Shown here in pieces: positions 10,022 through 41,388 of a stretch of DNA of 50,714 bases. The stretch lies in contig DQXT01000033.1 in NCBI GenBank assembly GCA_011042225.1, forward strand, positions 1 to 50,714. The letters are read 5' to 3'. Positions within the stretch are counted from its first letter, which is position 1; the number at the start of each line of letters is the position of its first letter. Under the pieces are notes generated by a model. It saw only the letters and a program-made list of their open reading frames with translations. It was not told where the DNA came from and made no database searches. The DNA comes from Deltaproteobacteria bacterium (GTDB taxonomy: Bacteria > Desulfobacterota > Dissulfuribacteria > Dissulfuribacterales > UBA3076). Made by a program: the position numbers and the translations under genes.

Positions 10022-10024
10022 CCT

Positions 10025-10975: not shown

Positions 10976-12331
10976 ATGCGCAAGTTGTTTGGTACAGACG
11001 GCATTCGCGGAACAGCCAACATCCATCCTATTACTACTGATATTGCCATGAAAATCGGGCGTGCCGTGGCATATATGTTTAAAAATCGCCGCGGGAGTCA
11101 TCCCAGGATACTCATAGGAAAGGATACTCGATTGTCCTGCTATATGCTGGAAAATGCGCTTGCAGGCGGGATATGTTCAATGGGAGTGGACGTTTTACTG
11201 CTGGGCCCCATGCCTACCCCTGCCATTGCCTTTCTTACCACCAACATGAGAGCGGATGCCGGAGTAGTTATATCTGCATCCCACAATCTCTTTCAGGATA
11301 ATGGAATAAAACTCTTTTCAGGGGATGGATTTAAATTGCCCGACGAGTTGGAAAAACAAATAGAGGAATTGATGGATTCGCAAATATTAACAGAATCCCA
11401 ACCAACCGGGCAAGATGTAGGCAAGGCGGTCCGCATCGAGGATGCCCCCGGCAGGTACATAGTATTTGTAAAAAACACGTTTCCCAAGGATCTTGCGCTG
11501 GATGGCCTCAGGATTGTCCTGGACTGTGCGAATGGGGCTACCTATAAAGTGGCTCCGGCTGTTTTTGAAGAGCTCGGGGCAAAGGTAACCAAATTGGGAG
11601 TAAGTCCAAACGGTACCAATATCAACTACAGGTGCGGAGCGGTTTATCCCGAACTCATGCAGAAGGCTGTAGTCGAGCACAAGGCTGATATTGGAATCGC
11701 ATTTGATGGGGACGGCGACCGTTTAATAGTAGTTGATGAAAAGGGTTCAGTAGTTGATGGCGATCATATTATGACAATATGTGCCTATGATATGATTGAC
11801 AAGGGAAGGCTTAACTTTAATACCGTAGTAGCAACGGTTATGAGCAACATGGGGCTAGAGATTGCTCTGGAGAACAAGGGGGGGAAACTGGTCCGAACTC
11901 AGGTTGGTGACCGCTACGTAGTGGAGGCCATGAGGCAGGCAGGTTACAACTTCGGCGGAGAACAATCGGGGCACCTGGTGTTTCTGGATCATATAACTAC
12001 GGGTGATGGTATTTTGGCTTCTCTACAGCTTTTGGCTATCATGCAAAAAAAGGAAAGGGCCCTTTCAGAACTTGCCGGAACGATGGATTCCTTTCCTCAG
12101 GTACTTCATAATGTCCGCTTGCGGGAGAAAAAGGCTTTAGATGAAATTGCCGGCCTCAGGGAACTCCAAGACCAGTTAGAAAAAGATCTTAAGCACAGGG
12201 GCAGGATACTCGTCAGACCATCAGGTACTGAACCGGTTATACGCATAATGGTTGAAGGCGAAAACGAGGAACAGATACAGGCCATGGCTATGACAATGGG
12301 TAATCATGTTGAGTCGGTCTGTGGAATTTAG
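10976..12331 (+). CDS. glmM: phosphoglucosamine mutase
   Basis: [29 protein letters not shown] and RPSGTEP. Confidence 0.97.
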
Positions 12332-13518
12332 TCCGCCTTTCTTCTCATAAAGGCGGGGATACTATCCAATTCATCGGTGTTTAGTTTATCAAGGCCGTCA
12401 AAGTCTAATACTGGTTTCTTCGAATTTTTTATGTGGTCGGTTATCCTAATAGGGTCCTTTTTGATACAGATTGACGGATCATGATCCGGTTTCATAGCCT
12501 TACTATTTTTCTTAATAGATTCTATTGGGGTAACAATATGCTTTCCAAAGGAAAGGGCGTCAGATCCTATACCGGTGGCTATTACCGTTACCCTTATCTC
12601 TTCATCTATATTGTCATCAAACACAGTTCCTAAAATTATATTAGCGTCTTCATGCGCCTCGTCGTAAATCAAAGAGGATGCCTGTTCTACCTCCTCCATG
12701 CTCAGAGTAGAACTGCTGGCAGTAATATTCAGCAGGATGCCCTTGGCACCGTTTATGGATATGTCTTCCAGCAAGGGATTGGATATGGCCATCTGTATTG
12801 CCTCCAAGGCCCTGCGTGATCCTTTGGCAACACCCGTACCCATAAGGGCCATCCCCATTTCAGCCGTGACTGTGCGAACATCGGCAAAATCCACATTTAT
12901 ATAACCCCTAAGGACTATGAGATCCGAAATGCCTCTTACTGCATAGTAAAGGACCTCATCTGCCTTTCGGAACATCTCTAGTATGGGAGTATTGGGTTGA
13001 GCCAGATTTCTGAGTCGGTCGTTTGGAATTGTTATTATGGTATCTACTACATCTTTCAATTCCTCTATCCCCTCTTCAGCCACACGCATTCTGCGTTTTC
13101 CTTCAAAGGAAAAAGGTTTTGTCACTACCGCCACTGTAAGGGCACCCAATTCTTTACTTATTTCAGCAATTACAGGGGCACCCCCGGTGCCGGTACCTCC
13201 ACCCATGCCGGCTGTGATAAAGACCATATCACTTCCTTCCAGCATAGTCCGGATATCATCTATGCTCTCTTCCGCGGATTCCCTGCCGATTTCAGGTTTT
13301 GCTCCTGCTCCGAGTCCCTTGGTAAGCCCTTTACCAAGCTGAATCTTTGCGCCGGCTTTGGATATTTCAAGGGCCTGAGAATCAGTGTTTGCAGCTATAA
13401 ACTCGACACCCTTGAGCTCAGAGGAAATCATGCTGTTAATAGCGTTTCCACCTCCGCCACCGACTCCTATTGCCTTTATCCTTGCAGTAAGTTTCGGTTC
13501 TATAAACTCAAAAGACAT
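12328..13518 (-). CDS. ftsZ: cell division GTPase FtsZ
   Basis: [24 protein letters not shown] and C-terminal peptide IPAFMRR. Confidence 0.99.
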
Positions 13519-13557: not shown

Positions 13558-14781
13558 CTAAATCTTAAACCATGACTTCATACGAAGGGTTACCTTGTTG
13601 AATATATTACCATCCCTTATTCGGAATTTTTTCTGGGAATGATGTTCCATGCCATAAAGCACAAGACCTACAGCAGTAGCAAACATGGGTCCGTTGACCA
13701 CATCCACCAAACCTGAAATCCTCTGTGGGAAGCCGATTCTTGTCGGCAACTGGAATACCTGATCCGCAATCTCAGCGGTTCCCGGCAGTAGGGCAGAGCC
13801 CCCGGTTATAACTATCCCCGAAGCCAATAGTTCCTTAAGTTCTGTCCGTTCTATTTCCTGGTCAATCAAGGTAAAAATCTCCTCTACCCTGGGCTCAAGT
13901 ATTTCAGACAGAATTTGCCTGGACAGAAGCCTGGGTTTACGTCCTCCCACACCGGGAACTTCTATCATCTGACCTCTGTCTGCCAGAGAATTGATACAGC
14001 TGCCGTCGCTTATCTTGATCTGTTCTGCCTCTTTACTGGGTGTCCTTAACCCGACTGCTATATCATTAGTGAGGTTGTTACCGCCAAGTCCCAGTACAGC
14101 TGTGTGTTTTATTGCACTTTCAGTAAATAGAGCAAGATCAGTGGTGCCACCACCAAAGTCCACAAGTGCAACACCCAGATCCTTTTCTTCCTGATTTAAG
14201 ACTGCTTCGGCCGAGGCAATGGGCTGAAAAACTATATCAACCACATCGAGCCCGGCCCTGTTTGCACACTTGATGAGGTTCTGGGCAGCCGTAACTGCTC
14301 CTGTCACGATATGTACCTTGGATTCCAGCCTTACACCGGTTATCCCTATAGGATCCAATATACCGCCCTGTTCATCTACGATATACTCCTGTGGCAGGAT
14401 ATGTATGACCTCTCTATCAAGGGGTATGGCTACCGCCCTTGCCGCATCTATAACTCTGTCAACGTCTTCCTGGGAGACCTCCTGGCCCTGTATGGCTATC
14501 ACCCCGTGACTGTTAAAACCCTTTATATGACTACCGGCGATGCCGATGAACACTGAGCTTATTTCACATCCGGCCATAAGTTCGGCCTCTTCAATAGCCC
14601 TTTTTATGGAATCGACCGTATTATCTATATTGACGACTACTCCCTTTCGCAGACCTACAGAAGGATAAGTCCCTACACCTATAATCTCGGCACTATTCTC
14701 ATTAAACTCGCCCACTACCGCACATATTTTAGTAGTGCCGATATCGAGCCCGACAATCATGTTACCGGGTTTTTCGACCAT
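13558..14781 (-). CDS. ftsA: cell division protein FtsA
   Basis: GLDIGTTKI, VDFGGGTTD, ITGGSA and FATAVGL. Confidence 0.98.
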   Translation of the reverse strand: MVEKPGNMIVGLDIGTTKICAVVGEFNENSAEIIGVGTYPSVGLRKGVVVNIDNTVDSIKRAIEEAELMAGCEISSVFIGIAGSHIKGFNSHGVIAIQGQEVSQEDVDRVIDAARAVAIPLDREVIHILPQEYIVDEQGGILDPIGITGVRLESKVHIVTGAVTAAQNLIKCANRAGLDVVDIVFQPIASAEAVLNQEEKDLGVALVDFGGGTTDLALFTESAIKHTAVLGLGGNNLTNDIAVGLRTPSKEAEQIKISDGSCINSLADRGQMIEVPGVGGRKPRLLSRQILSEILEPRVEEIFTLIDQEIERTELKELLASGIVITGGSALLPGTAEIADQVFQLPTRIGFPQRISGLVDVVNGPMFATAVGLVLYGMEHHSQKKFRIRDGNIFNKVTLRMKSWFKI

Positions 14782-14789
14782 TTCCTCTC

Positions 14790-15650
14790 CTAATGTTTCA
14801 AACTGACCAGGGCTTTGCCGGGACCATAATCGAGTTCCACCTTAACTGCTTTTTTATATGTCCCTGAGCGATAGAGTTGATAAAGGACTTTTTCCGCTCT
14901 ACTAAATTGGACGCCGAGATTTTCATAGTCAAAGTAAAAAGGAATACTGCCATAAGATGTAACCAGTATTAAGGTGTCTTTTTCAGCTATGTCTATTTGG
15001 CTGATATTGTTAACACCCAGAGTTCTTGTGCCCTTACTAGCCATGGATATCAACTCCAGGGCCTTTTGGATTCGGTTATTGTGCGATCTTGTTAAATTGT
15101 TATCTATAATGTTTTTAGGATCAATTCCTGTAATGATTGGAAGAGAGACGGATTCTTCTATTGAAAGTCTATCAATAATTTCGCCTTGTTCATCAATCAG
15201 GTACATTTTGTCGGAGTTCAAAATGGCTACCGGAGTGTGCTCTTTGAGCGTAATCATTAGGTGATCCGGCAATTTTTTTTTAACTTCAACACTATGGACC
15301 CAGGGATGCCCTTCTATGGACTTTGCAATCGATTCCAAGTCGAGAGACAGCAGATTGTCTTGGGCGGTCACATTACTCAATTGCAAAATCTCCTCTTCCG
15401 TGACACGGTCATTGCCTGTAATCAAAACCTGACAGACCCTAAAAAGCTCGGTTTGGTAAGCCCAATGTCGACACAAAAAAAAAGCGACAAAGCCAATGGA
15501 CATTACAGCTATAGCAACCAGTAATTTAGGATATATAGACCACAACACGGAAAACACCGGTTTTGTAGATTTGTCCCGCGAGATGAAGCTACATACTGAA
15601 GACCTGGATTCTAAAGACGGTCTTCTAATTTTCATGTTTCCATACCCCAA
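14790..15650 (-). CDS. ftsQ: cell division protein FtsQ
   Basis: Single TM segment, POTRA domain (ITGNDRV...HPWVHSVEVKKKLPD), E..PVA and YLIDEQG. dcw position. Confidence 0.9.
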   Translation of the reverse strand: MGYGNMKIRRPSLESRSSVCSFISRDKSTKPVFSVLWSIYPKLLVAIAVMSIGFVAFFLCRHWAYQTELFRVCQVLITGNDRVTEEEILQLSNVTAQDNLLSLDLESIAKSIEGHPWVHSVEVKKKLPDHLMITLKEHTPVAILNSDKMYLIDEQGEIIDRLSIEESVSLPIITGIDPKNIIDNNLTRSHNNRIQKALELISMASKGTRTLGVNNISQIDIAEKDTLILVTSYGSIPFYFDYENLGVQFSRAEKVLYQLYRSGTYKKAVKVELDYGPGKALVSLKH

Positions 15651-16609
15651 AAAGATACCTCCGGAACAAGTTCTACATCAGTCTCTTTTTTTACACGTTC
15701 TTTAATAATTTCCAATAAGTCCATTACCTCTACGGCGCTGGCTTTTCCACGGTTTATAATAAAATTTGCATGCCTTTTGGACACTTCAGCATCCCCAACT
15801 CTAAAACCTTTGAGTCCACATTGGTCTATGAGCTTTCCAGCTGAAACACCGGGGGGATTTTTGAAAATGCATCCCGCGCTTGGTTTTCCTAAAGGCTGGG
15901 TGGCTTTCCGCTGGCACATAGCGCTTCTCAAATGCTGCCTGATCTGATCGGCATTGCTTTTGCCGAATTTAATTCTTGCAGCCGAGATAATAGCATTGTC
16001 TTGCAGTCTGAAGGCCCTGTAATCAAAATACAATTGATCTCTATGAGACCAGCAACTACCATCAGGGCCTGTAAACTGAACAGCGTCTATCACTTCTGCC
16101 ATAAAGCACTTGTTAGTGCCGGCATTCATGAAGATGGCCCCGCCCACACTGGCCGGAATGCCGGAAAGATTTTCAAGACCGCCCAGGCTATTACGCACGG
16201 ACCAGGAAATAAGAGACCTCAGCCTGCAACCTGCCTCTACGTCTACCATTTTAAAGCGATGGCCATTAGCTGATCTCTCTTCCTGTAAAAAGGAACTAGA
16301 AGAAATTTGCCGGTGGTCCTCAGATTCAAATCTGCTTTCCACAGAGCATTGAATACGCTTCAGGGCCGCCAGAGACATAACCAGCTTCACGCCTTTGTCG
16401 CTGATCAAGAGATTGCTTCCTTGACCAATCACCTTATAAGATATGGAACGGTTACTGAGATAAAAAATGGTCTTTTCAAGGGCCTTCAATGTCTTCGGAG
16501 CCAGAAACAGATGTGCAGGCCCACCTATACGAAAACTCGTCAGCGGTAAAAGCGGTACACCTTCAAAGACTTGGAGATCTTCTATCTTTCTTAGATCCTT
16601 AGAGAGCAA
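15632..16609 (-). CDS. murB: UDP-N-acetylenolpyruvoylglucosamine reductase
   Basis: TSFRIGGPA, GQGSNLL, GIPASVGGAIFMNAG, SAGCIFKNP and HANFIIN. There is an ~25-aa insertion after the FAD loop. Confidence 0.96.
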   Translation of the reverse strand: MLSKDLRKIEDLQVFEGVPLLPLTSFRIGGPAHLFLAPKTLKALEKTIFYLSNRSISYKVIGQGSNLLISDKGVKLVMSLAALKRIQCSVESRFESEDHRQISSSSFLQEERSANGHRFKMVDVEAGCRLRSLISWSVRNSLGGLENLSGIPASVGGAIFMNAGTNKCFMAEVIDAVQFTGPDGSCWSHRDQLYFDYRAFRLQDNAIISAARIKFGKSNADQIRQHLRSAMCQRKATQPLGKPSAGCIFKNPPGVSAGKLIDQCGLKGFRVGDAEVSKRHANFIINRGKASAVEVMDLLEIIKERVKKETDVELVPEVSFWGMET

Positions 16610-17993
16610 TTGCTGACTCCTTTGTCTTAAGCATGCCCAAAATTCTCGGCCCCATATGCCCTATGGTACCAGCCCCAAGAGTCATGACCACGTCACCCTC
16701 CTGCAGGCTCGGCAAAATTGCCTGAGGAAGATCCCCGCATGACTCTATATAGTGTACTGTTCCACCACGTTGATTCATGATATTTCTTGCCAAACGTTTT
16801 CCGCTAACCCCTACTATGGGAGTCTCGCTCGCTGGATATATTTCCGTCAGCCACAGTTCATCAGCTTCTCCAAAGGCAGTGGTGAAATCGTCCATCAATG
16901 CCTGAGTTCTAGTATACCGATGGGGTTCGAAAAGAACCACGAGTCGGCGCTCAGGCCAACATGCCCTGGCGGCTTTGAGAGTGGCCACTATCTCAGTAGG
17001 GTGATGCGCATAGTCATCTACTACAATTATCCTTTCTGTTTCGCCCAATATCTCAAATCGCCTGCCTACACCTTCATATGACATAAGACCGGTCTGGATT
17101 TTGTGAAAGGGTATCTCAAGTTCAAGACCCAGGGCCATTGCGGCCAGAGAATTCCTTACATGGTGCAATCCAGGGACCTTGAGTTGTATCTCGCCAAGTT
17201 CGGAATTCTGCCACCAGGCATTGAAGGATACCCCCGGACCTTTGAAACTGATATCCCTGGCCTGTAGATCACATTCAGGTCCTGTACCATAAGTCATTGT
17301 TCGTTTTTTTACTACCGAGAGCATTTCTCTGAGGTGAGGGTTGTCTCCACAAAGTATGGCAAGACCATAGAAAGGTATTTTGTCTATGAAGTCCTGAAAA
17401 CAGCGTATTATTGCATCCAAATTGGAATAATAATCCAAGTGCTCCCTATCTATATTCGTTACCACGACTATGCTTGGTGTAAGGCGCAAAAAGCTGCCGT
17501 CACTTTCATCGGCTTCTGCTATAAGAAATTCGCCCTGTCCCCAATAGGCATTGCTCCCAATACCATTTACCTTCCCTCCTATGATAACCGTTGGATCAAG
17601 GCCACCGACACGAAGCACGGAAGAGATCATAGAGGTGGTGCTGGTCTTTCCATGTGCCCCGGCCACTGCTATGCCGAATTTTTTGAGCCGCATCAATTCT
17701 GCCACCATTTCAGCCCTTGGTATAACCGGAATTTGGGAAGAAAGTGCCCCCTGCACCTCAAGGTTATGTTCTCTGATGGCAGAGGAAATCACCACTACAT
17801 CGGCACCTTGAATATTTTCAGGGGCATGACCATTGTAAATTGTACCCCCCAATTTTCTTAGAGACCTGGTGATTTCAGTCTCACGCAAATCCGAACCCGT
17901 GACTTTATATCCCAGATTAAGAAGGATTTGTGCAAGGCCGCTCATGCCTATCCCGCCGATTCCTACAAAATGAATATGTTGTTTTTTATACAT
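16599..17993 (-). CDS. murC: UDP-N-acetylmuramate--L-alanine ligase
   Basis: HFVGIGGIGMSG, GAHGKTSTT, EADESD and DDYAHHPTE. Confidence 0.98.
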   Translation of the reverse strand: MYKKQHIHFVGIGGIGMSGLAQILLNLGYKVTGSDLRETEITRSLRKLGGTIYNGHAPENIQGADVVVISSAIREHNLEVQGALSSQIPVIPRAEMVAELMRLKKFGIAVAGAHGKTSTTSMISSVLRVGGLDPTVIIGGKVNGIGSNAYWGQGEFLIAEADESDGSFLRLTPSIVVVTNIDREHLDYYSNLDAIIRCFQDFIDKIPFYGLAILCGDNPHLREMLSVVKKRTMTYGTGPECDLQARDISFKGPGVSFNAWWQNSELGEIQLKVPGLHHVRNSLAAMALGLELEIPFHKIQTGLMSYEGVGRRFEILGETERIIVVDDYAHHPTEIVATLKAARACWPERRLVVLFEPHRYTRTQALMDDFTTAFGEADELWLTEIYPASETPIVGVSGKRLARNIMNQRGGTVHYIESCGDLPQAILPSLQEGDVVMTLGAGTIGHMGPRILGMLKTKESAIAL

Positions 17994-19188
17994 GGCTGCG
18001 TACTTTAGAACATTTCAATGAATTGGTTTCTTTTTGAGAACATGAAAATGTATGCCCGGCCATCTTCATCAGTGTAGAGGCCATATCTGCAGCCGCCTTG
18101 GGCCTTCCGAGTTTGCGCGCATTTTCTCCCATATTGTTGAGTTTTTGAGGATCCTCCAGTAAAGACTGTATCTCTCCTGCCAGTTTTATAGCTCCGACTT
18201 CTCCTTCCAGGAAATATTTGGAAGCCCCGGCTTCAGCCAGTTTTCTGGCGTTTGCATCCTGATGGCCGTCTGTTGCCCAAGGATAGGGAATAAGTATCGA
18301 AGGCTTTCCCGTAATCGCGAGTTCAGCCAAAGTACCCGCTCCTGCCCGGCAAATAACCAGATCTGCCCAGGAATAGGACTCACCAATGTCGGAAATAAAT
18401 TGGACCACTTTGGCCGGAATATTTGCATCTGCATAAAATTTCTCAACATAAGACATATCCAGCCTTCCTGTCTGGTGAATAATTCCCAAATGAAAACCAG
18501 ATTGCCACAGAACCTCTATGGCTGAACTGGCAAGCCGGTTCATGCATGTGGCACCCTGACTACCACCCAGGACCAAAATATTGTGTGATTGTGCGATCTT
18601 ATGATTTTGTGATTGGAATATGTCTTTCCGCACTGGATTTCCCGTAAAAATTACTCTGTTTCTTGGAAAATATTTGGTAGTCTCCTTAAAGCTCACAAAA
18701 ACTGTCTTTACAAATTTAGAGGCCAAACGATTTGTGAGGCCGGGTATAAGGTTCTGCTCATGAAGTGCTGCAGGTATCCGCAGTATCCGCGCTGCAAGAA
18801 GTGTGGGACCCGAGACATATCCGCCGACACCGAGCACCACATGAGGCCTGAATGATTTGAGCCACGAACAAGCCCTGATAGTGGAGAAAGGAAGTCCAGC
18901 CAGAGAACGTACAGTCCCTGAAATGCCTGAGCCCCTCAAAGGCCCCGTATTAAGGATTTTATAATCCCATTTATGTTCTAAAAGCGCATTTTTTTCCACC
19001 GGGCGGCCTGTACCTATCCACATAACATCTATAGGGCCGTATGATTCCATGGCCTCAACCACTGCCATTCCGGGAAATACATGCCCTCCCGTGCCGCCAC
19101 CAGCCACCACTAATTTGATGATTTGCCGGTTTGATGATTCGGTATTTGTTTTGTGCTTATATATTTCTCGACTCTTAGCCAAATTCAT
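17986..19188 (-). CDS. murG: undecaprenyldiphospho-muramoylpentapeptide beta-N-acetylglucosaminyltransferase
   Basis: AGGGTGGHVFP, GGYVS, HEQN, GNPVR, GGSQGA, RAGA and HQDANA. Confidence 0.97.
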   Translation of the reverse strand: MNLAKSREIYKHKTNTESSNRQIIKLVVAGGGTGGHVFPGMAVVEAMESYGPIDVMWIGTGRPVEKNALLEHKWDYKILNTGPLRGSGISGTVRSLAGLPFSTIRACSWLKSFRPHVVLGVGGYVSGPTLLAARILRIPAALHEQNLIPGLTNRLASKFVKTVFVSFKETTKYFPRNRVIFTGNPVRKDIFQSQNHKIAQSHNILVLGGSQGATCMNRLASSAIEVLWQSGFHLGIIHQTGRLDMSYVEKFYADANIPAKVVQFISDIGESYSWADLVICRAGAGTLAELAITGKPSILIPYPWATDGHQDANARKLAEAGASKYFLEGEVGAIKLAGEIQSLLEDPQKLNNMGENARKLGRPKAAADMASTLMKMAGHTFSCSQKETNSLKCSKVRSHV

Positions 19189-19242
19189 GACCTGCTCGCA
19201 GCTTTATTTTTAAATTAAAGTTCCTTTCCTGAAATAACCAAA

Positions 19243-20664
19243 TCACTCAATCAATAAATCATTCAATTCCCTGGCTGCCTCCTGAAAGGCCATGCCACGT
19301 TCTTCATAATTTTCGAACATGTCAAAGCTGGAACAGGCCGGGGAAAGAATTATTGCATCGCCGGGCTCAGCCAGGGACCTAGCTTTCTCCACGGCTTTTT
19401 TCATAACCTTTTTGCCTTCTTTTGTCCCATGTACTTTAACAACCGGCATTACCTTACCCAGAATTTTTTCAAACGCCTTGGCCTCTTCACCTATAACGAT
19501 CGCACCACGAACAACTGTCTTTTTAGCGATATCGGCCAGGGAACCATAATTTTCACCTTTGCCACGGCCGCCCAAAATAATTACTATTGGCTGTTCTATG
19601 GACTCTAGTGCACAAAGTACGGATGCAACATTAGTGGCCTTAGAATCGTCATAATAGTCGATACCCCCGTTTTGGACCACCCACTGAATTCTATGATTCG
19701 CTGCTTTGAAAATTCGAATAACAGACTTTACTGCAACAGCACCTGCACCTGCCAGACGTGAAATAAGTATGGCACAAGCCAAATTTTCAACATTATGTCG
19801 ACCCTTTAGAGACCAGCTTTCCAAATCATATCTTTCCCACGTATTATCAGACCACATTATGTCGATCTTTTTCAAAGAGGTGTCCAGCCCGGCCCCTGGA
19901 ACTCCAGGGCTCAGCATCCCAAAGTAAAGCCTTCTGGCACGTCCCCGGTCATTCCAAGTTTCTAGTTCCTTGTCATTCATGTTGCGTATGGACCAGTCAC
20001 CAGGCCCTTGAAAATCATAGATTACTGCCTTGCTGTCTCCGTAGCTTTTAATGTTCTGATAACGATCAAGATGATCCGGGGCAAGATTGAGCCATGCGGT
20101 TATATTGAACCTTGGGGGATTAAAGTTGAAATATCTGGTCCTCGGGAAATAATCCAATTGAAAACTGCTAATCTCAAGGACAGCAATAGTTTGCTCAGTA
20201 TGTCCTTCAATAAATGCCGACAAGGGTGTTCCGATGTTCCCAGCCCTTACATGAGGCACACCGGCCTTATTCAGCATCTCATCTACAAGCATCGTGGTAG
20301 TAGTTTTTCCATTTGTGCCGGTGATAGCAATAAGCGGTCCTTTCCAGACAGATGCAGCAAGGGCCATTTCTCCCAACACAGGGATGTTGTGCTTGTGTGC
20401 CGCCTCAAGGGCAGAAATTTCAGGTGAGACACCAGGGCTGACCACTATCAGGTCAGAGGAGAGGCAAGTGTCTATCTTGTGCTTTTTTGTCTCTATGCCG
20501 ACACCATTTTGGTGACACCATCTTGTGAAATCATTAGGCCATTCCTTAAGGGCATTTAAGTCACTGCATATGACTTGTGCCCCTTGAGAGACGATCCATC
20601 TGGCGGCTGCCTGCCCGGATACTCCCATGCCCAGTATTGTTACTTTTTTGCCCTTAAGCTCCAC
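19243..20664 (-). CDS. murD: UDP-N-acetylmuramoyl-L-alanine--D-glutamate ligase
   Basis: GMGVSG, ITGTNGKTTT, EISSFQL, DHLDRY, DSKATN and SPACSSFDMF. Confidence 0.97.
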   Translation of the reverse strand: MELKGKKVTILGMGVSGQAAARWIVSQGAQVICSDLNALKEWPNDFTRWCHQNGVGIETKKHKIDTCLSSDLIVVSPGVSPEISALEAAHKHNIPVLGEMALAASVWKGPLIAITGTNGKTTTTMLVDEMLNKAGVPHVRAGNIGTPLSAFIEGHTEQTIAVLEISSFQLDYFPRTRYFNFNPPRFNITAWLNLAPDHLDRYQNIKSYGDSKAVIYDFQGPGDWSIRNMNDKELETWNDRGRARRLYFGMLSPGVPGAGLDTSLKKIDIMWSDNTWERYDLESWSLKGRHNVENLACAILISRLAGAGAVAVKSVIRIFKAANHRIQWVVQNGGIDYYDDSKATNVASVLCALESIEQPIVIILGGRGKGENYGSLADIAKKTVVRGAIVIGEEAKAFEKILGKVMPVVKVHGTKEGKKVMKKAVEKARSLAEPGDAIILSPACSSFDMFENYEERGMAFQEAARELNDLLIE

Positions 20665-20760: not shown

Positions 20761-21840
20761 CTATCTCAATTTGAGCGTGCTGATTGCCAACAGCCCAAGC
20801 AATATGGAAATTATCCAAAACCTTACAATGACCTTTGGTTCTTTCCATCCTTTAAGCTCAAAATGATGATGGATAGGTGCCATACGGAAGATCCTCTTGC
20901 CTCCTGTTGTTTTGAAGTAAAGGACCTGAAGAATTACGGATAATGCCTCAATAACAAAAATCCCGCCTACAATTACAAGCAGCATTTCCTGCTTTGAAAG
21001 TACGGCCACCGTCCCAAGAGCCCCTCCCAAGGAAAGGGAGCCGACATCTCCCATGAAGATCTGGGCCGGATAGGTATTATACCAGAGGAAACCCAGACCG
21101 GCGCCTACCATGGCGCCACAAAACACTGCAAGCTCTCCTGCACCAGGAACCGAAGGAATCCGAAGGTATTGTGCAAGAGTCGAATGACCCGCCAGGTAGG
21201 TAAACAGGGTGTAAACCGCTGCAGCTATTATAAAAGGGCCTGCGGCAAGTCCGTCCAGACCATCGGTCAGGTTAACCGCATTAGAGGTCCCCACAACCAC
21301 AAGCAGAGCGAAAAGACCATACATAATTCCTAGATCAGGCTGAAAATTCTTAAAAAAAGGAATACTAAGATGGGTATCCCACTTACCATGTGCGGCAATT
21401 AACCCTGCGGCTAAAAATACAAAAACTATTTGCCCGACAAGCTTCAATCTGCCCGACAGACCTTTGGCATTCTTTTTCCAGATCTTTAACAGGTCGTCTA
21501 CGAGACCTATTATACCGTAACCGACAAGGATTAAAATGCTTATCCAAACATAAAGGTTTCTTAAGTCAGCCCAGAGAAGTGTAGCGATTAGAATGGACCC
21601 TATGATTAATATGCCCCCTATACTCGGTGTTCCGGCTTTTGTATGATGTATTGTCGGCCCATCGTCCCGGATGATCTGGCCCATCTGCATTTCACACATA
21701 ATTCTTATAAACCAAGGTCCAAAAATCAATATTATTGAAAGGGCAGTCACTGCAGCGTATATTGTTCTAAATGTAATATAGCGAAAAACGTTAAATACAG
21801 GCCACATATCGTTAAGGGGATATAGCAGATGAAAAAGCAT
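20761..21840 (-). CDS. mraY: phospho-N-acetylmuramoyl-pentapeptide transferase
   Basis: [28 protein letters not shown] and MAPIHHHFE. Confidence 0.98.
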
Positions 21841-24800: not shown

Positions 24801-24897
24801 TTACGTCGTACTTCTCAAATGATATAAAAACAGCGGGCTTCAACACTTCCAACATATCCCGCAAGGTCCTTTCGTTTTGCGTATTACCAAACATCAC
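21844..24897 (-). CDS. murE-murF: fused MurE (meso-DAP ligase) - MurF (D-Ala-D-Ala adding enzyme)
   Basis: MurE half: ITGTNGKTT, EVSSHAL, DHLDYH, DYAHTPD, DNPR, AGKGHE, FDDRE. After a short linker, MurF half: ISTDSR, ITGSCGKTTTK, NNLIGLP, EMG, DDSYNANP, GDMLELG, KGSR. One continuous ORF. Confidence 0.95.
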   Translation of the reverse strand: MMFGNTQNERTLRDMLEVLKPAVFISFEKYDVKIRGITADSRQVKREYMFVAIPGTEFDGRQFINDAVVKGASAVLMSRQDLHHYVKNVPMALPVIGVDDPRLSIGLLASAFYGNPSEKMSLIAITGTNGKTTISYLLEGIFSKAGLNPGVIGSISQRHCGIEVPSELTTPDAVKLQETLANMLKRGAKAVALEVSSHALDQQRISGCSFAASIFTNLGRDHLDYHQDMEQYFQAKVKLFLKYPSDAAIINIDDLYGRRLWEIVKEKKISYGLSPEAEVKPEFQFIDSEGIICDISTPKGPISIKSKLMGLHNLYNILATVAVSISLGIEPDHIQAGIKSIIRIPGRLDPVYSHNGVTAFVDYAHTPDALESVLSSLIGLGPNKLLICVIGCGGDRDRGKRPLMARAAASLADIVVLTSDNPRTEDPLAIIDQMLNGLRDLPPCHPATKAEVKIIPDREAAISWAVERAQPGVCLLVAGKGHETYQIIGRERLVFDDREILTKAFESKIEAGRSTLENFEDYGFRLKASQVATAIGARVLSGDPNTLIQGISTDSRSVRKANIFWALSGDRFNGHDFILDAVGQGCTSAVISSSFDFRNLNLDPRSCRPVLLQVQDVLKALGDFAAWYKNHLGIKVIGITGSCGKTTTKELIFSILKKKWKVAKTSGNFNNLIGLPLSLLSAGSNDSWAVLEMGTNQPGEISRLCEIAQPQVALITTIQPAHLVGLGDLKAVAQEKWELWRAISQTGVAVVNLDDPMVMEGAKDLKCQVVGYSMGQKADSFPDHQILKSSNDKITCLSWTLSEHGTLLDLDIAGNRLYVDLHLIGKANVQNAVASAAAGHAVGVTPALIKQGLEEARPLPGRLFLRNLGPKWMLIDDSYNANPCSMRSALETLDFWSGGGKKIAILGDMLELGDAAYEFHQELGRISANTGVDLLVLIGEFADAVSETARKAGISKKAIRVFPDIEDLLSWIELAALDCMPFPATILVKGSRAIGLERAVNALIRQLGEGKRGGLTV

Positions 24898-26651
24898 TCG
24901 CAGGTTATACTGCAGGTCTTCACACCATTAAGAGGTATTCCTGATTCTGGTTTCTGCGCGATCACGGTCCCTACACCTTTGAGCTCTGTATAAATGCCCA
25001 TGGATTGCAAAATGTCCAGGGCCTGTCTTACGGATTTTCCCTTAAGATTCGGCATAGTGGAAAACTGTCTTTCTGCCTCTTCGGTTTTCACCGTTCGCCA
25101 TTCGTCTTTCAAGGGTATCTGCACCGCCTGTTTTGCTACTACCAGTGAACGCCCTAAAGTGCCCCGACGCTCACGAGGGTCGATTTTTACGCCGTCGAGC
25201 AAAACAATATAACTTACTTTGGGTGATCTTTCGGGCCAGAATCCTAGGGCAGTAACCTGTGCTGGAAATTGATTAGAAATTTGGTCAGACTGTTCATTCC
25301 ACCTGATACTCGCAAGAGACGGCCCTCCTCTGACCGCGAGCTTTCTCAGCGATTTGTGTATCAGTTCTTCTGTCAACCAGGAAATTGGGGCATGCTTTTG
25401 GTCATTCGCGGAAGAGCCCGGTATCAAAAATTCATCAGTGCTTTGTAGGGCCACGTGCGGTGTAACTAATATATTTTTATTTATCAGGGCAGAGAAGGCC
25501 CTGAGAATCTGGATAGGACTGGCGGTAACGGCCTGCCGCAAGAGGCTATTACGTAACCCTGCCGGGGCTGATGGGAGGCTGCCCCGGCCTTCACCCGGAA
25601 GGTCGATACCTGTAAATTGACCAAATCCCAGACCCCAGAGATCTCTTGAAATGTCATTATAAGGGACAATATCCTTTAACTCCTTTTCAGTCCAGGGACT
25701 CCATAATACCATACCCTTATCCAAAACCTCCCATTGGCACTGGTGGGCGGTTTTCCCCAAAGGCAAAATCTCTGACTTTTGAAGTTCACTTTGTTCAAAC
25801 ATCCAGTTTAAAAGGGGCACAAGTATCATCAGGTCAACATTATCTTGGAGAGAATAGTTTATGATATTCCTCTCAGATATTTCCCAAAAACGTTCAGGAT
25901 CCCAGGAAGGCTTGCTGGCAAGGGCAAGAATCTCACCATTTTCAACACCCATTATAACAAAACAGCCTTTCTCTGCCTTAAGTCTTTTGATCTGCCTGTC
26001 AAGCTCTTTTTCTGCTGATGACTGAATATCTTTACTAAGTGCAAGCGTAAGATCCTGTCTACCTGGGTAAATTTGTGACCCTTTAGTTTGCCTTAAAAGG
26101 CTATCATATGTGTATTCAATTCCCTCAAGACCTCTGCCGCCTTGGTCGACAAATCCCAAAACCGGAGAAGCCAGTGAATTACAAGGATATACCCTTTTAT
26201 ATTGTTCCAGTATTTCTAAGCCTCTAACCTGCATGTCTTTGAGCTTCCGGCCTTGTTCTTCGGAAATACAGTCTTTTAGACATATAAGGTCCTGCTCATC
26301 TGCAAGCATATCTTTCAAAGTTGGCAAATCAAGGTCAAGAATTTCTGACACCTCTGCCAGCCAATCATCAACTTGCCGCAAACGGGAAGGCCGCGCCAAG
26401 ATAGAGATTTTTTTTTGGTTTGCAACAAATATTGCTCCTGTCCTGTCAAGGATCATGCCTCTATCTAAGGGACTTTGCTGGGAATAGTAGCCGGTGTTTT
26501 GTTGTTGACAAAGCATGGACGAATCAATGTCATCTTCGCTATTGACAGCGTTGCCTTGCCAAAGACAACCAACAAACGCTGCGGCAATAACAGCAAGACT
26601 CAATAAGCTGAAAAGAAAAGAAATTTTCTTTTTTTTATAAGGAAAAATCAT
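24894..26651 (-). CDS. ftsI: FtsI/PBP3-like class B PBP with C-terminal PASTA domain; transpeptidase motifs absent
   Basis: ftsI position between ftsL and murE. N-terminal TM, pedestal motifs RGMILDRTG, RVYP and GLEGIE, then GEILALAS, GFGQFTGIDLPGE, SPIQ, GFWP and PASTA MPNLKGKSVRQA. No SxxK, SxN or KTG at the expected positions. Confidence 0.85.
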   Translation of the reverse strand: MIFPYKKKKISFLFSLLSLAVIAAAFVGCLWQGNAVNSEDDIDSSMLCQQQNTGYYSQQSPLDRGMILDRTGAIFVANQKKISILARPSRLRQVDDWLAEVSEILDLDLPTLKDMLADEQDLICLKDCISEEQGRKLKDMQVRGLEILEQYKRVYPCNSLASPVLGFVDQGGRGLEGIEYTYDSLLRQTKGSQIYPGRQDLTLALSKDIQSSAEKELDRQIKRLKAEKGCFVIMGVENGEILALASKPSWDPERFWEISERNIINYSLQDNVDLMILVPLLNWMFEQSELQKSEILPLGKTAHQCQWEVLDKGMVLWSPWTEKELKDIVPYNDISRDLWGLGFGQFTGIDLPGEGRGSLPSAPAGLRNSLLRQAVTASPIQILRAFSALINKNILVTPHVALQSTDEFLIPGSSANDQKHAPISWLTEELIHKSLRKLAVRGGPSLASIRWNEQSDQISNQFPAQVTALGFWPERSPKVSYIVLLDGVKIDPRERRGTLGRSLVVAKQAVQIPLKDEWRTVKTEEAERQFSTMPNLKGKSVRQALDILQSMGIYTELKGVGTVIAQKPESGIPLNGVKTCSITCE

Positions 26652-27230: not shown

Positions 27231-28193
27231 TTATAGTAATTGGGTCAGAGCAGTATTCTGCCCTCTATATTGAGCAACTCTTAGCTTGGCACTTCTAGCC
27301 CGGGGATTACTATTTATTTCTTCAAGGCTTGGCACCAAAGGTTTTTTAGTTAAGGGCTTCAATCTCTTGTCTTCTCTGAAAGCGATTTTGACCAGACGGT
27401 CCTCCATAGAATGAAAGGAGATAACACACATTCGTCCTCCGGGTCTCAGACAAGATGGGAATGAGTCAAGGGCCTCTTTAAGATTGTCCAGTTCTCGGTT
27501 CAATGCGATTCGAAGTGCCTGGAAGGTGCGTGTAGCGGGATGAATTCGGCGTGGATGATATTTTCTCGGAATGGAATCGGCAATCACTTCCGCCAGGTCT
27601 CTCGAACTCAGAATAACTTCTGCCTTGCGCCTTTCATATATGCGTTTGGCGATCCTTTTTGCCCATCTTTCTTCCCCATATGTATGGATAAGCTCGGTCA
27701 ATCTTTCAACCGAAAGCTTATTGACTATGTCGGCAGCAGTCACTGCACCAGATTGATCCATGCGCATGTCAAGAGGTTCGTCCCTGGAAAAGCTGAAGCC
27801 TCTCCCGCTGTTTTCCAAATGGAAGCTGGAAATGCCGAGATCCATAAGTATGCCATCAACTTGCTCTATTCTGTTGGATAAAAGAACATCACGAAGATGA
27901 ATGAAGTTGCTGTAAACTAATCGAACCCTGCTGCCAAATGCGGCCAATCTGGATCCGGCCTTTTTCATGGCTTCTGTATCATAATCAAGGGCCAGCACCA
28001 TTTTGACTTCGGGGCACCTTGACAGTATGGCCTCTGTATGGCCTCCCAGACCAAGTGTTGCATCCACATAGATACCCCCTGACCTCAATGACAGGCCATC
28101 CAGAACTTCGGAGAGCATTACAGGGACATGCATGGCCTCTTTTCTAACCGCTAATTCCGAATTTGGCGGTGATATCGCTGCTGTACTGATCAA
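27231..28193 (-). CDS. rsmH: 16S rRNA m4C1402 methyltransferase RsmH (MraW); real start likely near MHVPV
   Basis: HVPVML, DATLGLGGH, DLGISS, PLDMRMD, HPATRTFQALRI, FHSMEDR and NPRARSAKLR. Confidence 0.97.
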   Translation of the reverse strand: MISTAAISPPNSELAVRKEAMHVPVMLSEVLDGLSLRSGGIYVDATLGLGGHTEAILSRCPEVKMVLALDYDTEAMKKAGSRLAAFGSRVRLVYSNFIHLRDVLLSNRIEQVDGILMDLGISSFHLENSGRGFSFSRDEPLDMRMDQSGAVTAADIVNKLSVERLTELIHTYGEERWAKRIAKRIYERRKAEVILSSRDLAEVIADSIPRKYHPRRIHPATRTFQALRIALNRELDNLKEALDSFPSCLRPGGRMCVISFHSMEDRLVKIAFREDKRLKPLTKKPLVPSLEEINSNPRARSAKLRVAQYRGQNTALTQLL

Positions 28194-28593
28194 AGTTACT
28201 CCTAGTCTTCTGCAATTCTTTGTTCAAGCTGTCCCGGTTTGATATTTCAAAATAGGTAAGCATACCCGAAAGAACCACATCCCTGGTCAATACCGCCTCT
28301 TCACGAAGCCTCTGGGGTATCAATATTCTCCCCTGAGCATCCAGTGAACATTCCGCTGCAGCTCCCAACAGGTATCTTTTAAAGGCTATGACTTCAGGAG
28401 GCCCGAATTGAAACCGGCTGAAATGTTCTTCTATTTTTCTCCATTCCTCAAAAGGATAAGCTGCAAGGCAAGAGGGCAAGTTGGTAACTACCAGCCGGTC
28501 ATCATATTTTGCCTGCAAGAACTCTCTAAAACGCGCCGGAATGCTAAGACGGCCCTTGGCATCCAAAACATGGGCTGACCGTCCTCTAAACAT
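28144..28593 (-). CDS. mraZ: transcriptional regulator MraZ
   Basis: Two DxxGR repeats (LDAKGRLSIP and LDAQGRILIP). First gene of the dcw cluster. Confidence 0.97.
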   Translation of the reverse strand: MFRGRSAHVLDAKGRLSIPARFREFLQAKYDDRLVVTNLPSCLAAYPFEEWRKIEEHFSRFQFGPPEVIAFKRYLLGAAAECSLDAQGRILIPQRLREEAVLTRDVVLSGMLTYFEISNRDSLNKELQKTRSNFDQYSSDITAKFGISG

Positions 28594-28894: not shown

Positions 28895-29962
28895 TTAAAG
28901 TGGGGTATTAGTTTGTGTCGAATCGGGGCTGGTCTTTTTGTTGGGTCTGTATTGGCGCCTGCGTTGATACCTATCTACAGCTCTATTATGTTCAGCCAGA
29001 GTCCGAGAAAAATAATGTTTGCCATTGTTTTTCGAAACAAAATAGAAATAATCCTTTTCTGATGGATAGAGAGTCGCCTTGATGGACTCCTTGCCGGGAT
29101 TTGAAATCGGTCCAATGGGCAATCCCCTGTTTACATAGGTGTTATAAGGAGTTTTTTTCCTAAGATCTTTCCATCTAAGACGACGCTTTTTTGTTTTGTT
29201 TTCCACAAGTATTCCGTAAAGGACGGTTGGATCCGCCTGAAGAGGCATATTTTTTTTAAGGCGATTCCAAAATACACAAGCTATCAGCGGCCTTTCTTTT
29301 GATTGCATGGCCTCTTTTTCAACTATGGAAGCGATAGTTACTATATCGTGGATTTGGACATCCAGTTCTTCTGTTCTGCGACTGAATTTTTCTGAATTCC
29401 ATACTTCCCAAAAATGATTTACAAATGTGCAGAGCATCTCATACGGAGTGGCATCCTTTGTCAATTGATAAGTGTCAGGGTAAACATAACCCTCGGCGCT
29501 GTCAGCTTCTATACCTAAAGTTCTTAAGATGTTTTTGTCTCGTGCCACATTGATGAATGAATCATCAGATATCAATTTCGCATTTGCAAGGAGGTCATCT
29601 ATTTGGAACAGGTTATAGCCTTCGGGAATGGTAATAATATATTGGCGGATTTTCCCTTTGACCAGATAATCCAGAATCTCTGCAGGGGTTTGAGTTGGAG
29701 AAAGTTCGTATTCTCCAGCCTTTATCTTGGTCGTTGCATCTTTCCACCAGGCCAAGCAATAAAATGCCCTTTTGGATTTGATTAAACCCTCTGTTTCAAG
29801 CTTTTGTGCTACTGAAAAGAAGGTGCTCCCAATGGAGATCAATATGATCTTATTTTTGCCTGTTTCGGAAACAGGCAACGTACAATCTTTCCAGATCTGA
29901 TAGCCGGATAGAAAAACTGCGTAGAATAAAACGGGTACCCAAAATTCACGTATTATTCTCAT
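28895..29962 (-). CDS. mltG: endolytic transglycosylase MltG
   Basis: KAGEY, TIPEG, EGYVYPDTY, ASIVEKE (catalytic Glu), LQADPT, PYNTY, GLPIGPI and YFVS. Confidence 0.95.
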   Translation of the reverse strand: MRIIREFWVPVLFYAVFLSGYQIWKDCTLPVSETGKNKIILISIGSTFFSVAQKLETEGLIKSKRAFYCLAWWKDATTKIKAGEYELSPTQTPAEILDYLVKGKIRQYIITIPEGYNLFQIDDLLANAKLISDDSFINVARDKNILRTLGIEADSAEGYVYPDTYQLTKDATPYEMLCTFVNHFWEVWNSEKFSRRTEELDVQIHDIVTIASIVEKEAMQSKERPLIACVFWNRLKKNMPLQADPTVLYGILVENKTKKRRLRWKDLRKKTPYNTYVNRGLPIGPISNPGKESIKATLYPSEKDYFYFVSKNNGKHYFSRTLAEHNRAVDRYQRRRQYRPNKKTSPDSTQTNTPL

Positions 29963-39591: not shown

Positions 39592-41388
39592 ATGAATCCA
39601 TTAGTATCTGAGCATAACTGCGTACGACTACGATTTTCTTCGTGTCTGTTTATTATTGCTTTACTATTAGGTACATTTTTATTAATTGAAATAGAATATG
39701 CACACGCAAAACCAAAAAATTCTGCCCTAAACAGGACGGAATACACCTATCGTCAAGCCAAATCTGAATATAATCGCCTTGCCAGGGATTCCCGGCTTCG
39801 CACCCGCAGAACAGCGTGGATTCAAGTAATTAAAAAATTCAGGACAGTATATCTCACCCATCCCAACGATATTAAGGTTGCCCCCAAAGCCCTCTTTATG
39901 ATGGCATGCTGTTACAGCGAATTATATGGATACTCAGGAGCTATTAAGGATATACATGAGGCTATTGAGCGATATAAGGTCCTGATTGAGAGATTTTCCG
40001 AAAGTTACTTGGCAGATGACGCCCTCTATGACCTCGGAAACCTTTATAACCGTATCGGGAATATTAATCTAGCCCTAAAAGCATGGGAACGGATAATTAA
40101 AGAATACCCCAAAAGAGATAAGGTCGGGCTTGCCGAAAAAAAGTTAAAACTTTTAGGTCCTGTAAAGCGGCAAGAAATAAAAACTCCAAAGCTGGCAAGT
40201 TATAATAATGAAGAATTCTCAAGTATATCCAGCCCGAAGATTTCTCCAGATACAAAACCTGCTGTTGTGCGAGAGGTGAGGCATTGGTCCGCTGCGGACT
40301 ACACCAGGGTGGTCATTGATACAGCAGGCCCTGTATACTTTACAAAAGGATATCTTCCTGCCAATAAGGCCGAACACCTTCCGGAACGTATTTATTTAGA
40401 TCTCAAACCGGCCTTTATAGGAAAAAATTTCAAGAACGACATATCTATAAGAGACGGACTACTTAAGGGGGTGAGAATAGCCCAATTTAACCGTAGTACG
40501 GTCAGGGTGGTATTTGATCTCAAGAACACCCATAAGACAAAGATCTTTTATCTGGAGGATCCCTTCAGGGTAGTAGTAGACGCATTTGGAGAAAACTACT
40601 TTCATAGACCTTCCTGCCCACAACGATCTCCCGAAATACATAAAAAGAGCAGGGCTCAATTAAAAGATGACGATCTTTCTCTCGCGCAACAATTGGGCCT
40701 CTGTGTAAAACGAGTGGTAATAGATGCCGGCCACGGCGGAAAGGATCCGGGGGCTATCGGACCTACCGGCCTGAAAGAAAAAGACGTGGTACTCACGATT
40801 GCAAAAAAAGTGGCTTTACGACTTAAAAAAGACCTGGGTTATCAGGTTATCCTGACCAGAAAAGAAGATCGATTTCTGCCACTTATGCAAAGAACCGCCA
40901 TTGCCAATGCCGAAAAGGCCGATCTATTTTTGTCTATTCATGCAAATGCAGCCCCTAGTAGGGGAGTTAGTGGGCTTGAAACCTACTTTTTAAACTTTGC
41001 CCTGGATAAAGAGGCTATGAATGTGGCAGCCCGAGAAAATGCTACATCAACAAAAAGAATAGGGGATCTTAAGCATATACTAAACGATATAATGAAAAAT
41101 ACCAAAGTGGATGAATCCTCACGCTTGGCAGGCTGCGTGCAGAGGGAGCTTGTAAAAAAGCTCAGAAAACAATATGATAAAGTGAAAAGCAAAGGAGTTA
41201 AACAGGCCCCATTTTTTGTGCTGATAGGGGCGAGAATGCCCTCGGTTCTTGTGGAAGTATCGTTTATAAGCAACAGGCAAGAAGAGAAGCGTCTCAAAAG
41301 CGACCGTTATCTGAGCAGCGTGGCCGATGGGATCGTAAACGGTATTAAATCATATGCCAGCGACACCAAGTTCGCTTATCTACCTTGA
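39592..41388 (+). CDS. N-acetylmuramoyl-L-alanine amidase (TPR + AMIN + Amidase_3, AmiC-like)
   Basis: N-terminal TM/signal segment, TPR-like repeats (APKALF, ADDALY), AMIN segment (VRIAQFNRSTVRVVFDL, DPFRVVVD) and catalytic IDAGHGG, EK, SIHAN and LVEVSF. Confidence 0.9.
   Translation: MNPLVSEHNCVRLRFSSCLFIIALLLGTFLLIEIEYAHAKPKNSALNRTEYTYRQAKSEYNRLARDSRLRTRRTAWIQVIKKFRTVYLTHPNDIKVAPKALFMMACCYSELYGYSGAIKDIHEAIERYKVLIERFSESYLADDALYDLGNLYNRIGNINLALKAWERIIKEYPKRDKVGLAEKKLKLLGPVKRQEIKTPKLASYNNEEFSSISSPKISPDTKPAVVREVRHWSAADYTRVVIDTAGPVYFTKGYLPANKAEHLPERIYLDLKPAFIGKNFKNDISIRDGLLKGVRIAQFNRSTVRVVFDLKNTHKTKIFYLEDPFRVVVDAFGENYFHRPSCPQRSPEIHKKSRAQLKDDDLSLAQQLGLCVKRVVIDAGHGGKDPGAIGPTGLKEKDVVLTIAKKVALRLKKDLGYQVILTRKEDRFLPLMQRTAIANAEKADLFLSIHANAAPSRGVSGLETYFLNFALDKEAMNVAARENATSTKRIGDLKHILNDIMKNTKVDESSRLAGCVQRELVKKLRKQYDKVKSKGVKQAPFFVLIGARMPSVLVEVSFISNRQEEKRLKSDRYLSSVADGIVNGIKSYASDTKFAYLP

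Follow-up and report, generated by a model that had tools for sequence, protein, structure and literature searches.

A predicted FtsI pseudoenzyme encoded in a dcw cluster without ftsW in a Seep-SRB2/Dissulfuribacterales-type bacterium

FtsW and FtsI are treated as the universally essential septal synthase of bacteria, with Clostridioides difficile as the exception. According to the available text of PMC10693644, this organism divides by means of a penicillin-binding protein of class A (aPBP), PBP1, without the canonical FtsW and FtsI. Catalysis by PBP2B of Bacillus subtilis, a penicillin-binding protein belonging to class B (bPBP), is described as dispensable in the accessible sections of PMC5656894. 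In Escherichia coli, the anchor-loop of FtsI (R207-D225) touches both extracellular loop 4 (ECL4) of FtsW and FtsL/FtsB, and FtsI residues 223-228 correspond to residues 209-215 of the Pseudomonas aeruginosa protein (PMC10390529, open portion). Here we describe pseudo-FtsI, a protein encoded on contig DQXT01000033.1 of a Deltaproteobacteria bacterium (assembly GCA_011042225.1); the whole stretch of 50,714 nucleotides that was analysed is referred to below as the window. On the sequence evidence, pseudo-FtsI is a true ftsI (PBP3) orthologue turned pseudoenzyme in a bacterium of the Seep-SRB2/Dissulfuribacterales type.

Pseudo-FtsI resembles FtsI/PBP3 of P. aeruginosa (PDB 8BH1 and related entries) and E. 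coli in its slot within the dcw cluster of cell-wall and division genes, in its domain order and in its pedestal motifs, and it carries a PASTA domain, as many FtsI proteins of Thermodesulfobacteriota do. It differs from true FtsI/PBP3 in the loss of three motifs, the deletion of the anchor-loop, the lack of an FtsW partner and a lipobox-like N-terminus. By analogy, it may be compared with the active-site mutant of PBP2B in B. subtilis and with SpoVD of C. difficile, where the bPBP has to be present and another PBP performs the cross-linking (available text of PMC5656894 and PMC12516126). Those cases, as the same texts present them, concern active enzymes that were point-mutated in the laboratory and are still paired with SEDS proteins, whereas the inactivation of pseudo-FtsI would be natural, ancient and complete, and its SEDS partner is gone. 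The likeness to C. difficile and other Clostridia, as far as the latter are covered by the available sources, lies in the use of FtsZ by a walled bacterium, in a vegetative septum that FtsW-FtsI does not make and in RodA-PBP2 being the one other SEDS pair. C. difficile is, however, a monoderm spore-former in which the dcw pair is re-used as active SpoVE-SpoVD, whereas in the Thermodesulfobacteriota lineage considered here ftsW was deleted and ftsI kept dead. LytM factors regulate septal amidases, their fold and partner are different, and any likeness of pseudo-FtsI to them would be one of logic only. In that limited sense, the protein may be placed beside inactive LytM factors of the EnvC/NlpD type, which are division-site pseudoenzymes that arose from a wall enzyme and persist as regulators (PMC8416486, in the part available). 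Our search, which covered the main text of openly available papers, revealed neither a description of a naturally dead FtsI nor a paper on FtsW, its loss or peptidoglycan in Seep-SRB2/Dissulfuribacterales.

Pseudo-FtsI is encoded by a single unbroken open reading frame (ORF) of 585 aa (P0001). An earlier note on this DNA had recognised in the dcw cluster an FtsI homologue of full length, and the ORF, the synteny and the Pfam domains bear this out; the span it gave, 24894-26651, stands, and the strand, which it left unstated, is minus. The gene sits in the ftsI slot, flanked by an ftsL-like gene and murE (Table 1), and the dcw cluster in the window is complete, with all genes co-directional. 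The stop of the ftsL-like gene is separated by 11 nt from the start of pseudo-ftsI. From the stop/start overlap with murEF, the gene is predicted to share a transcript, and to be coupled in translation, with its neighbours in mraZ-rsmH-ftsL-[ftsI]-murEF. Pfam recognizes PBP_dimer (PF03717; aa 63-195, 50 bits versus a cut-off of 24.4), Transpeptidase (PF00905; 45.3 bits versus 22.1), with a match confined to aa 339-442 and to profile positions 124-222 out of 299, and PASTA (PF03793; aa 532-571, 31.8 bits versus 23.2). All motifs quoted in the earlier note were found at the residues it gave, namely, RGMILDRTG (64-72), RVYP (153-156) and GLEGIE (174-179) in the pedestal, and GEILALAS (239-246), GFGQFTGIDLPGE (342-354), SPIQ (378-381) and GFWP (470-473) in the penicillin-binding fold; the segment NYSLQDNVDLMILVP likewise lies at 25815-25859 as written. 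Scaffold motifs common with true FtsI, GFG, xxLPGE, (S/T)P(I/L)Q and GF(W/A)P, are retained, and pedestal residues I67, R70, R153, G174, G177 and E179 are invariant among 33 sequences of the family. Scores against NCBIfam models of FtsI, MrdA and SpoVD stay far below the respective cut-offs (129 bits versus 688 for SpoVD, 61 versus 737 for FtsI). The ESM Atlas model of the exact protein has a predicted template-modelling score (pTM) of 0.67 and aligns to FtsI/PBP2 clusters with TM-scores of 0.62-0.68 over residues 58-523 or 58-585. Where true FtsI has a conserved juxtamembrane helix motif, pseudo-FtsI has an acidic, polar linker. A lipobox-like pattern (here A-F-V-G-C29), scored with a PROSITE-like pattern, occurs in 18 of the 33 family members and in none of eight true FtsI, and is missing from whole sub-clades; a putative lipoprotein nature of pseudo-FtsI is, hence, a lead only.

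The loss of SxxK, SxN and K(T/S)G, the central claim of the earlier note, is seen in four concordant alignments: a MAFFT alignment of pseudo-FtsI with eight true FtsI, a MAFFT alignment of FtsI ORFs from 80 public loci, a HMMER alignment of a 33-sequence family profile to PDB chains and an hhalign alignment of the same profile to a profile of 20 true FtsI sequences. The last has a probability of 100 (E 3e-77) over 533 columns, and the best PDB match in the HMMER search is P. aeruginosa FtsI (E 1.5e-49), aligned in two stretches which skip the SxxK-SxN region. Columns of EPGSxxK hold V-D-L-M-I-L-V-P, with Ile276 in place of the serine and Pro279 in place of the lysine. Trp317-Ser318-Pro319 occupy the S-S/C-N columns, and the KTG columns correspond either to a gap (hhalign) or to Pro-Ser-Leu 444-446 (HMMER); a motif scan found no K[ST]G anywhere in the 585-aa protein. 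The only S..K strings, at positions 212 and 434, are outside of the active-site columns and, by eye, unconserved in the alignment with eight FtsI. Corresponding replacements are present in all 29 related loci (L021-L049), and FtsI of the outgroup loci L050-L099 keep the three motifs in 50 cases out of 50; the loss is not due to chance. The transpeptidase-like domain has no invariant Ser, Cys, Lys or His among the 33 family sequences. Its nucleophile column is occupied by Ile, Val, Leu, Phe, Trp, Pro or Gly, and the serine of WSP is retained in many members and replaced by Gly or Thr in several. Among the 150 best matches of the family profile to 1.84 billion representative sequences, 51 are without all three motifs, 95 have them and 4 are ambiguous. 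Since the nucleophilic serine, the general-base lysine, SxN and KTG are gone, pseudo-FtsI is predicted to be a protein that cannot be acylated or cross-link peptidoglycan. The place of the SxN loop is filled by a Trp-rich signature conserved in the family, consisting of W307 and LWSPW, which could plug the old cleft or make a new binding surface.

A further feature, which was not in the earlier note, is that ftsW is absent from both the cluster and the genome. In the window, murD adjoins murG with no ftsW in between. The genome to which the window belongs (2.05 Mb, 153 contigs, 96% complete) contains a single match to PF01098, the SEDS family. This sole SEDS protein of 369 aa adjoins an intact MrdA, scores above the RodA equivalog cut-off (402.6 > 336.7) and below that of FtsW (296.1 < 337.5). 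Exactly one SEDS match was found in 39 out of 41 genomes of the order, the two blanks being 70-74% complete, and among the class genomes which are at least 90% complete, a SEDS match was present in 50 of 51, one in each; the class contains only this one order. The closed 2.0-Mb genome G024 is in the same state, with one SEDS. The single SEDS of the relative G021 (G021:C1:522019-523047) is part of an open frame of 1029 aa, suggestive of a fusion between PBP2 and RodA. The earlier note had also remarked on a shortened pedestal loop, and indeed the family is devoid of an equivalent of P. aeruginosa FtsI residues 194-211 (HMMER; the gap is also found by hhalign). According to PMC10390529, in its open portion, this region is the anchor-loop, so that the missing segment is the one by which FtsW is gated.

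Dead FtsI and missing ftsW go hand in hand. We surveyed the window and 86 other loci, of which 37 were not assessable, including L077, where the ORF is at a contig end and FtsI reads as intact in the alignment of 80 loci. Dead FtsI without SEDS between murD and murG was found at 27 loci, including L090, a partial ORF assigned by family, and intact FtsI with SEDS at that position at 23 loci. There were 0 loci with dead FtsI and SEDS and 0 with intact FtsI without SEDS, so that the co-occurrence is perfect in the 50 assessable loci. The murD-murG gap in the 27 dead loci is between -19 and 132 nt. In a tree of MraY, MurD, MurG and MurC (38 rows, after six near-duplicate genus rows were dropped from the 44 with all four genes; quick search), a single change accounts for the distribution of dead FtsI and absent ftsW. 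Of the 18 dead rows, 17 group together with a support of 99, and the 18th (L115) is adjacent to this clade with a placement that is not resolved. The fusion of murE and murF, present in the window, L022-L048, L100, L116, L117 and L141, is a marker of this 17-row clade (in L035, the fusion is represented by two matches); murE and murF are separate in every outgroup dcw locus and in L115. One public contig, L022, carries a bacterial dcw cluster with 75% identity to the window protein under the label 'archaeon isolate' and is probably a mislabelled consortium bin.

The trait extends to a class-level lineage and its sisters, which have the same state or smaller remnants and on which the earlier note had been silent. 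Outside of the class, G041, G083, G120 and G153 each have a degenerate FtsI, a cluster without ftsW and one SEDS. In a sample of 251 genomes of the phylum, most have two SEDS matches, and roughly 40 outside of the order have one (manual count). In G263, G069, G094 and G145, which represent four other families with a single SEDS and are also without ftsW, the ftsI slot contains only an ORF of 248-324 aa. The sole Pfam match of three of these short ORFs is a C-terminal PASTA domain, above the cut-off in L137 (2e-5) and below it in L138 (1e-3) and L140 (0.012), and the fourth has pedestal-like motifs only, as judged by eye. These ORFs look like graded decay of FtsI. The reverse reduction was observed in G071 (L105, L119) and G101 (L118), where intact FtsI and FtsW in the dcw cluster are the sole SEDS pair; no RodA/PBP2-type pair was found in either genome with the searches used. 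A survey published in 2025 (PMC12516126) lists, in its available text, pedestal-only and transpeptidase-lacking bPBPs as well as ftsI pseudogenes, among which the remnants of 248-324 aa may belong. A term search of the main text of the survey, as accessible, returned none of 'active site', 'SXXK', 'Desulf', 'Desulfobacterota' and 'Thermodesulfobacteriota'. Because that survey, according to the same text, scores domain architecture, a full-length dead FtsI would count there as canonical.

In an IQ-TREE phylogeny of bPBPs (38 hand-chosen rows: 15 dead proteins, 15 intact FtsI and 8 PBP2; quick search), FtsI and the dead proteins form one clade (support 100) and PBP2 another (100). The 15 dead proteins make up one group (99), nested among FtsI of Thermodesulfobacteriota. 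Homologues grade from 82% down to ~30% identity (word-index search) and are present in 40 out of 41 genomes of the order, from 11 families and 19 genera, the sole miss being a genome that is 83% complete. As the orthologue collection proposed in the earlier note was meant to probe, motif loss is common to orthologues across the whole order, and intact motifs turned up in no close relative. In 39 of the 40 matched genomes, the reading frame stays open. Pairwise ratios of non-synonymous to synonymous substitutions (dN/dS; NG86, 45 pairs among 10 genus-level sequences chosen from ~25) come to about 0.28 for the whole gene, below 1, the threshold set in the earlier note, and resembling those of neighbouring essential genes (murEF 0.27, murB 0.23, ftsL 0.37, mraY 0.10). 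Within the gene, the dead transpeptidase-like domain is the most constrained part (0.22, compared to 0.36 for the pedestal and 0.33 for PASTA). The idea that the protein is retained rather than decaying is, thus, upheld by the order-wide homologues and the dN/dS of 0.28. Pseudo-FtsI corresponds to what is understood by a pseudoenzyme, an enzyme homologue without catalytic residues under purifying selection. All 33 family members possess the pedestal core and the dead domain. Pseudo-FtsI proteins of 525-547 aa without the pedestal head (approximately residues 76-150) were noticed in Seep-SRB2-like kin (P0034, P0036, P0038, P0040; L032).

We hold with moderate confidence that pseudo-FtsI, a conserved pseudoenzyme derived from FtsI, persists as a part of the divisome without catalytic function, with the septum made by the class A PBP and/or RodA-PBP2. 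FtsI has lost its catalytic residues together with its partner FtsW and the FtsW-contacting anchor-loop, and still has its membrane anchor, pedestal core, penicillin-binding fold and PASTA domain. The protein would most likely stay in the divisome with FtsQ, FtsL and FtsB as a structural or regulatory subunit, and septal peptidoglycan would be polymerised and cross-linked by the sole class A PBP, as in C. difficile, possibly aided by RodA-PBP2. Residence in the divisome, the role as scaffold or regulator and the identity of the septum-building synthase are what we infer. Besides FtsB, the genome encodes a single class A PBP of 688 aa, RodA along with PBP2, and a transpeptidase of 470 aa that has no pedestal. 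All 41 order genomes contain the GT51 domain of class A PBPs, and two of these genomes give two matches each. The 470-aa protein (L003:1399-2811, minus strand, contig C66) has a full transpeptidase domain and occurs mostly in the window's own family; as a universal stand-in for FtsI catalysis it was rejected, being found in only 18 of the 41 order genomes and 4 of the 19 genera.

Several observations weigh against this explanation. In the bPBP tree, the dead proteins sit on branches roughly double the length of those leading to intact FtsI, and their grouping as a single clade could therefore be partly due to long-branch attraction. The match in G019 bears two in-frame stops. A dN/dS of ~0.3 indicates relaxed constraint by the standard of bacterial core genes, but neighbouring genes have comparable values. 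The head subdomain is absent in 9 of the 33 family members and PASTA in 14, no member being without both, so no single accessory interface is universal. The genomes of the order are mostly draft metagenome-assembled genomes, and the counts given above are counts of matches. As kin are not independent, the contrast of 27 and 23 loci reflects common descent, perhaps one event, rather than co-evolution on repeated occasions. Finally, the residue-level argument draws on sequence alignments, and the residence in the divisome and the role of the class A PBP are argued by elimination.

Other explanations can be set against the same data. Pseudo-FtsI might be a midcell adaptor for RodA, in which case one SEDS protein would serve both PBP2 in elongation and pseudo-FtsI in septal targeting, with cross-linking provided by PBP2 or the class A PBP. 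The genome and the order have no SEDS other than RodA, the pedestal core is invariant in the motifs by which bPBP-SEDS allostery is mediated, and two bPBPs share one SEDS in Salmonella and C. difficile (PMC12516126, in the text available). However, the anchor-loop that is seated on ECL4 of the SEDS protein is deleted, the juxtamembrane helix motif has given way to a polar linker, with many members having a lipobox rather than a plain transmembrane anchor, and rodA is still in an operon with intact mrdA, so that we consider this adaptor unlikely. Alternatively, PASTA and/or the dead cleft with LWSPW might bind a muropeptide, glycan or lipid II, and pseudo-FtsI would be a sensor that reports on or regulates wall synthesis or hydrolysis rather than part of the synthase core. 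Such a sensor would agree with the intact PASTA of the window protein, with PASTA being the sole Pfam match of the ftsI-slot remnants in three other FtsW-less lineages (one above the cut-off), and with the transpeptidase-like domain being the most constrained, with a family-specific invariant Trp. Yet 14 of the 33 family members are without PASTA and the dead domain is in all 33, for which reason PASTA was rejected as the general cause of retention in the order; moreover, ligand-binding residues are not assignable from the sequence, and translational coupling in the dcw operon fits a stoichiometric divisome part. A sensor outside of the synthase core is, in our estimate, quite unlikely.

The remaining two explanations deny either the loss of activity or the retention. 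Transpeptidation or another reaction could proceed via non-canonical residues, as might be surmised from a fold that is kept and constrained and from the Ser beside the SxN position (WSP) in many members. It is very improbable that the protein is still an enzyme, given that the domain has no Ser, Cys, Lys or His common to all 33 sequences, the nucleophile column is variable, KTG is deleted and the WSP Ser is replaced in several members. A recent pseudogene under neutral drift, or an assembly or binning artefact with ftsW left unassembled, might be suspected from the draft state of the genome, in 153 contigs, and the in-frame stops in the relative G019. Yet the window and nearly all matched genomes have an open frame, dN/dS is well below 1, the ORF is kept while identity drops to 30%, murD and murG are tightly spaced in the 27 loci and the closed genome G024 is in the same state. 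We give hardly any credence to this possibility and regard it as already refuted. The conserved pseudoenzyme, kept in the divisome, remains the explanation that we favour.

Positions of the features are collected in Table 1. Three further genes in the window, encoding an amidase, MltG/YceG and an OmpA-family protein, are septal wall-remodelling genes. Adjoining ftsZ is a trio of genes for a diadenylate cyclase (DAC), a YbbR-like protein and a phosphoglucosamine-mutase-like protein, which corresponds to an operon of the CdaA-CdaR-GlmM type. The window also encodes two fused proteins, one combining GARS (PurD) with AIR carboxylase (PurE) and the other homocysteine S-methyltransferase with MTHFR. 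An ORF of 301 aa matched no Pfam family at E <= 1e-5 and may not be a gene, as it is overlapped by an ORF on the other strand.

Table 1. Coordinates of the dcw cluster, of pseudo-FtsI segments and of other genes in the window, and of short ORFs in ftsI slots of other loci
Feature	Position	Strand	Remark
mraZ	28144-28593	-	dcw cluster
rsmH/mraW	27231-28193	-	dcw cluster
ftsL-like gene, 125 aa	26663-27040	-	weak FtsL matches below cut-off; assigned by position
pseudo-FtsI ORF, 585 aa	24894-26651	-	orthology from synteny and bPBP tree
F-V-G-C, aa 26-29, lipobox-like end of N-terminal hydrophobic segment	26565-26576	-	pattern match
pedestal (PBP_dimer), aa 63-195	26067-26465	-	motifs RGxIxDR, RxYP, GLEGIE
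18-residue anchor-loop deletion, between Gln193 and Ile194	26070-26075	-	gap versus P. aeruginosa FtsI 194-211
predicted dead transpeptidase-like domain, ~aa 231-505	25137-25961	-	Pfam, dN/dS 0.22, fold match
SxxK-equivalent segment NYSLQDNVDLMILVP, aa 265-279	25815-25859	-	Ser to Ile276, Lys to Pro279
LWSPW, aa 316-320, family-specific, Trp-rich, at SxN position	25692-25706	-	S-x-N to W-S-P
SLASIRW, aa 445-451, expected KTG region	25299-25319	-	K-S/T-G to P-S-L or gap
PASTA domain, aa 532-571	24939-25058	-	Pfam; aligns with PASTA of true FtsI (hhalign)
fused murE-murF, 1017 aa	21844-24897	-	start overlaps pseudo-ftsI stop
mraY	20761-21840	-	dcw cluster
murD	19243-20664	-	dcw cluster
murD-murG junction, usual ftsW site	19189-19242	-	too small for a gene
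murG	17986-19188	-	dcw cluster
murC	16599-17993	-	dcw cluster
murB	15632-16609	-	dcw cluster
ftsQ	14790-15650	-	divisome core retained
ftsA	13558-14781	-	divisome core retained
ftsZ	12328-13518	-	divisome core retained
DAC, YbbR-like, phosphoglucosamine-mutase-like trio	9224-12331	+	adjoins ftsZ
homocysteine S-methyltransferase-MTHFR fusion, 639 aa	2373-4292	+	
MltG/YceG	28895-29962	-	
GARS (PurD)-AIR carboxylase (PurE) fusion, 622 aa	30634-32502	-	
ORF, 301 aa	32654-33559	+	
amidase with TPR and AMIN domains	39592-41388	+	
OmpA-family protein	41565-42188	+	
short ftsI-slot ORF	L137:2005-2916		
short ftsI-slot ORF	L138:5436-6410		
short ftsI-slot ORF	L139:5201-6175		
short ftsI-slot ORF	L140:12073-12819		

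In more than 40 draft genomes and a closed one, ftsW has been deleted, and ftsI has been kept constrained and catalytically dead. Because ftsI is dead and ftsW is gone, these bacteria, members of a sulfate-reducing lineage, seem to build the division wall without FtsW-FtsI, which would make them a second, independent exception to the universality of this pair, different in kind from the first. We see an even chance that a class-level group of free-living Thermodesulfobacteriota, which use FtsZ, FtsA and FtsQLB, divide without FtsW or a septal class B transpeptidase, having re-purposed FtsI as a dead fold maintained by selection. The lineage concerned would comprise Dissulfuribacterales, including the Seep-SRB2 partners of methane-oxidising archaea, and sister groups, FtsI having shrunk in other branches to short remnants, three of them with a PASTA match.

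If true, FtsWI would not be a universal core of the FtsZ divisome in diderms, and a beta-lactam target would have turned into a regulator. The finding opens the question of the non-catalytic job of FtsI, otherwise masked by its essential enzymology, and that of which synthase FtsQLB controls without FtsWI. Since intact, full-length dead and 248-324-aa forms are all found in one phylum, the stepwise passage from enzyme to pseudoenzyme is testable. As the order has cultured members, experiments should be feasible. The finding is also relevant to the cell biology of bacteria that live in syntrophy with methanotrophic archaea.

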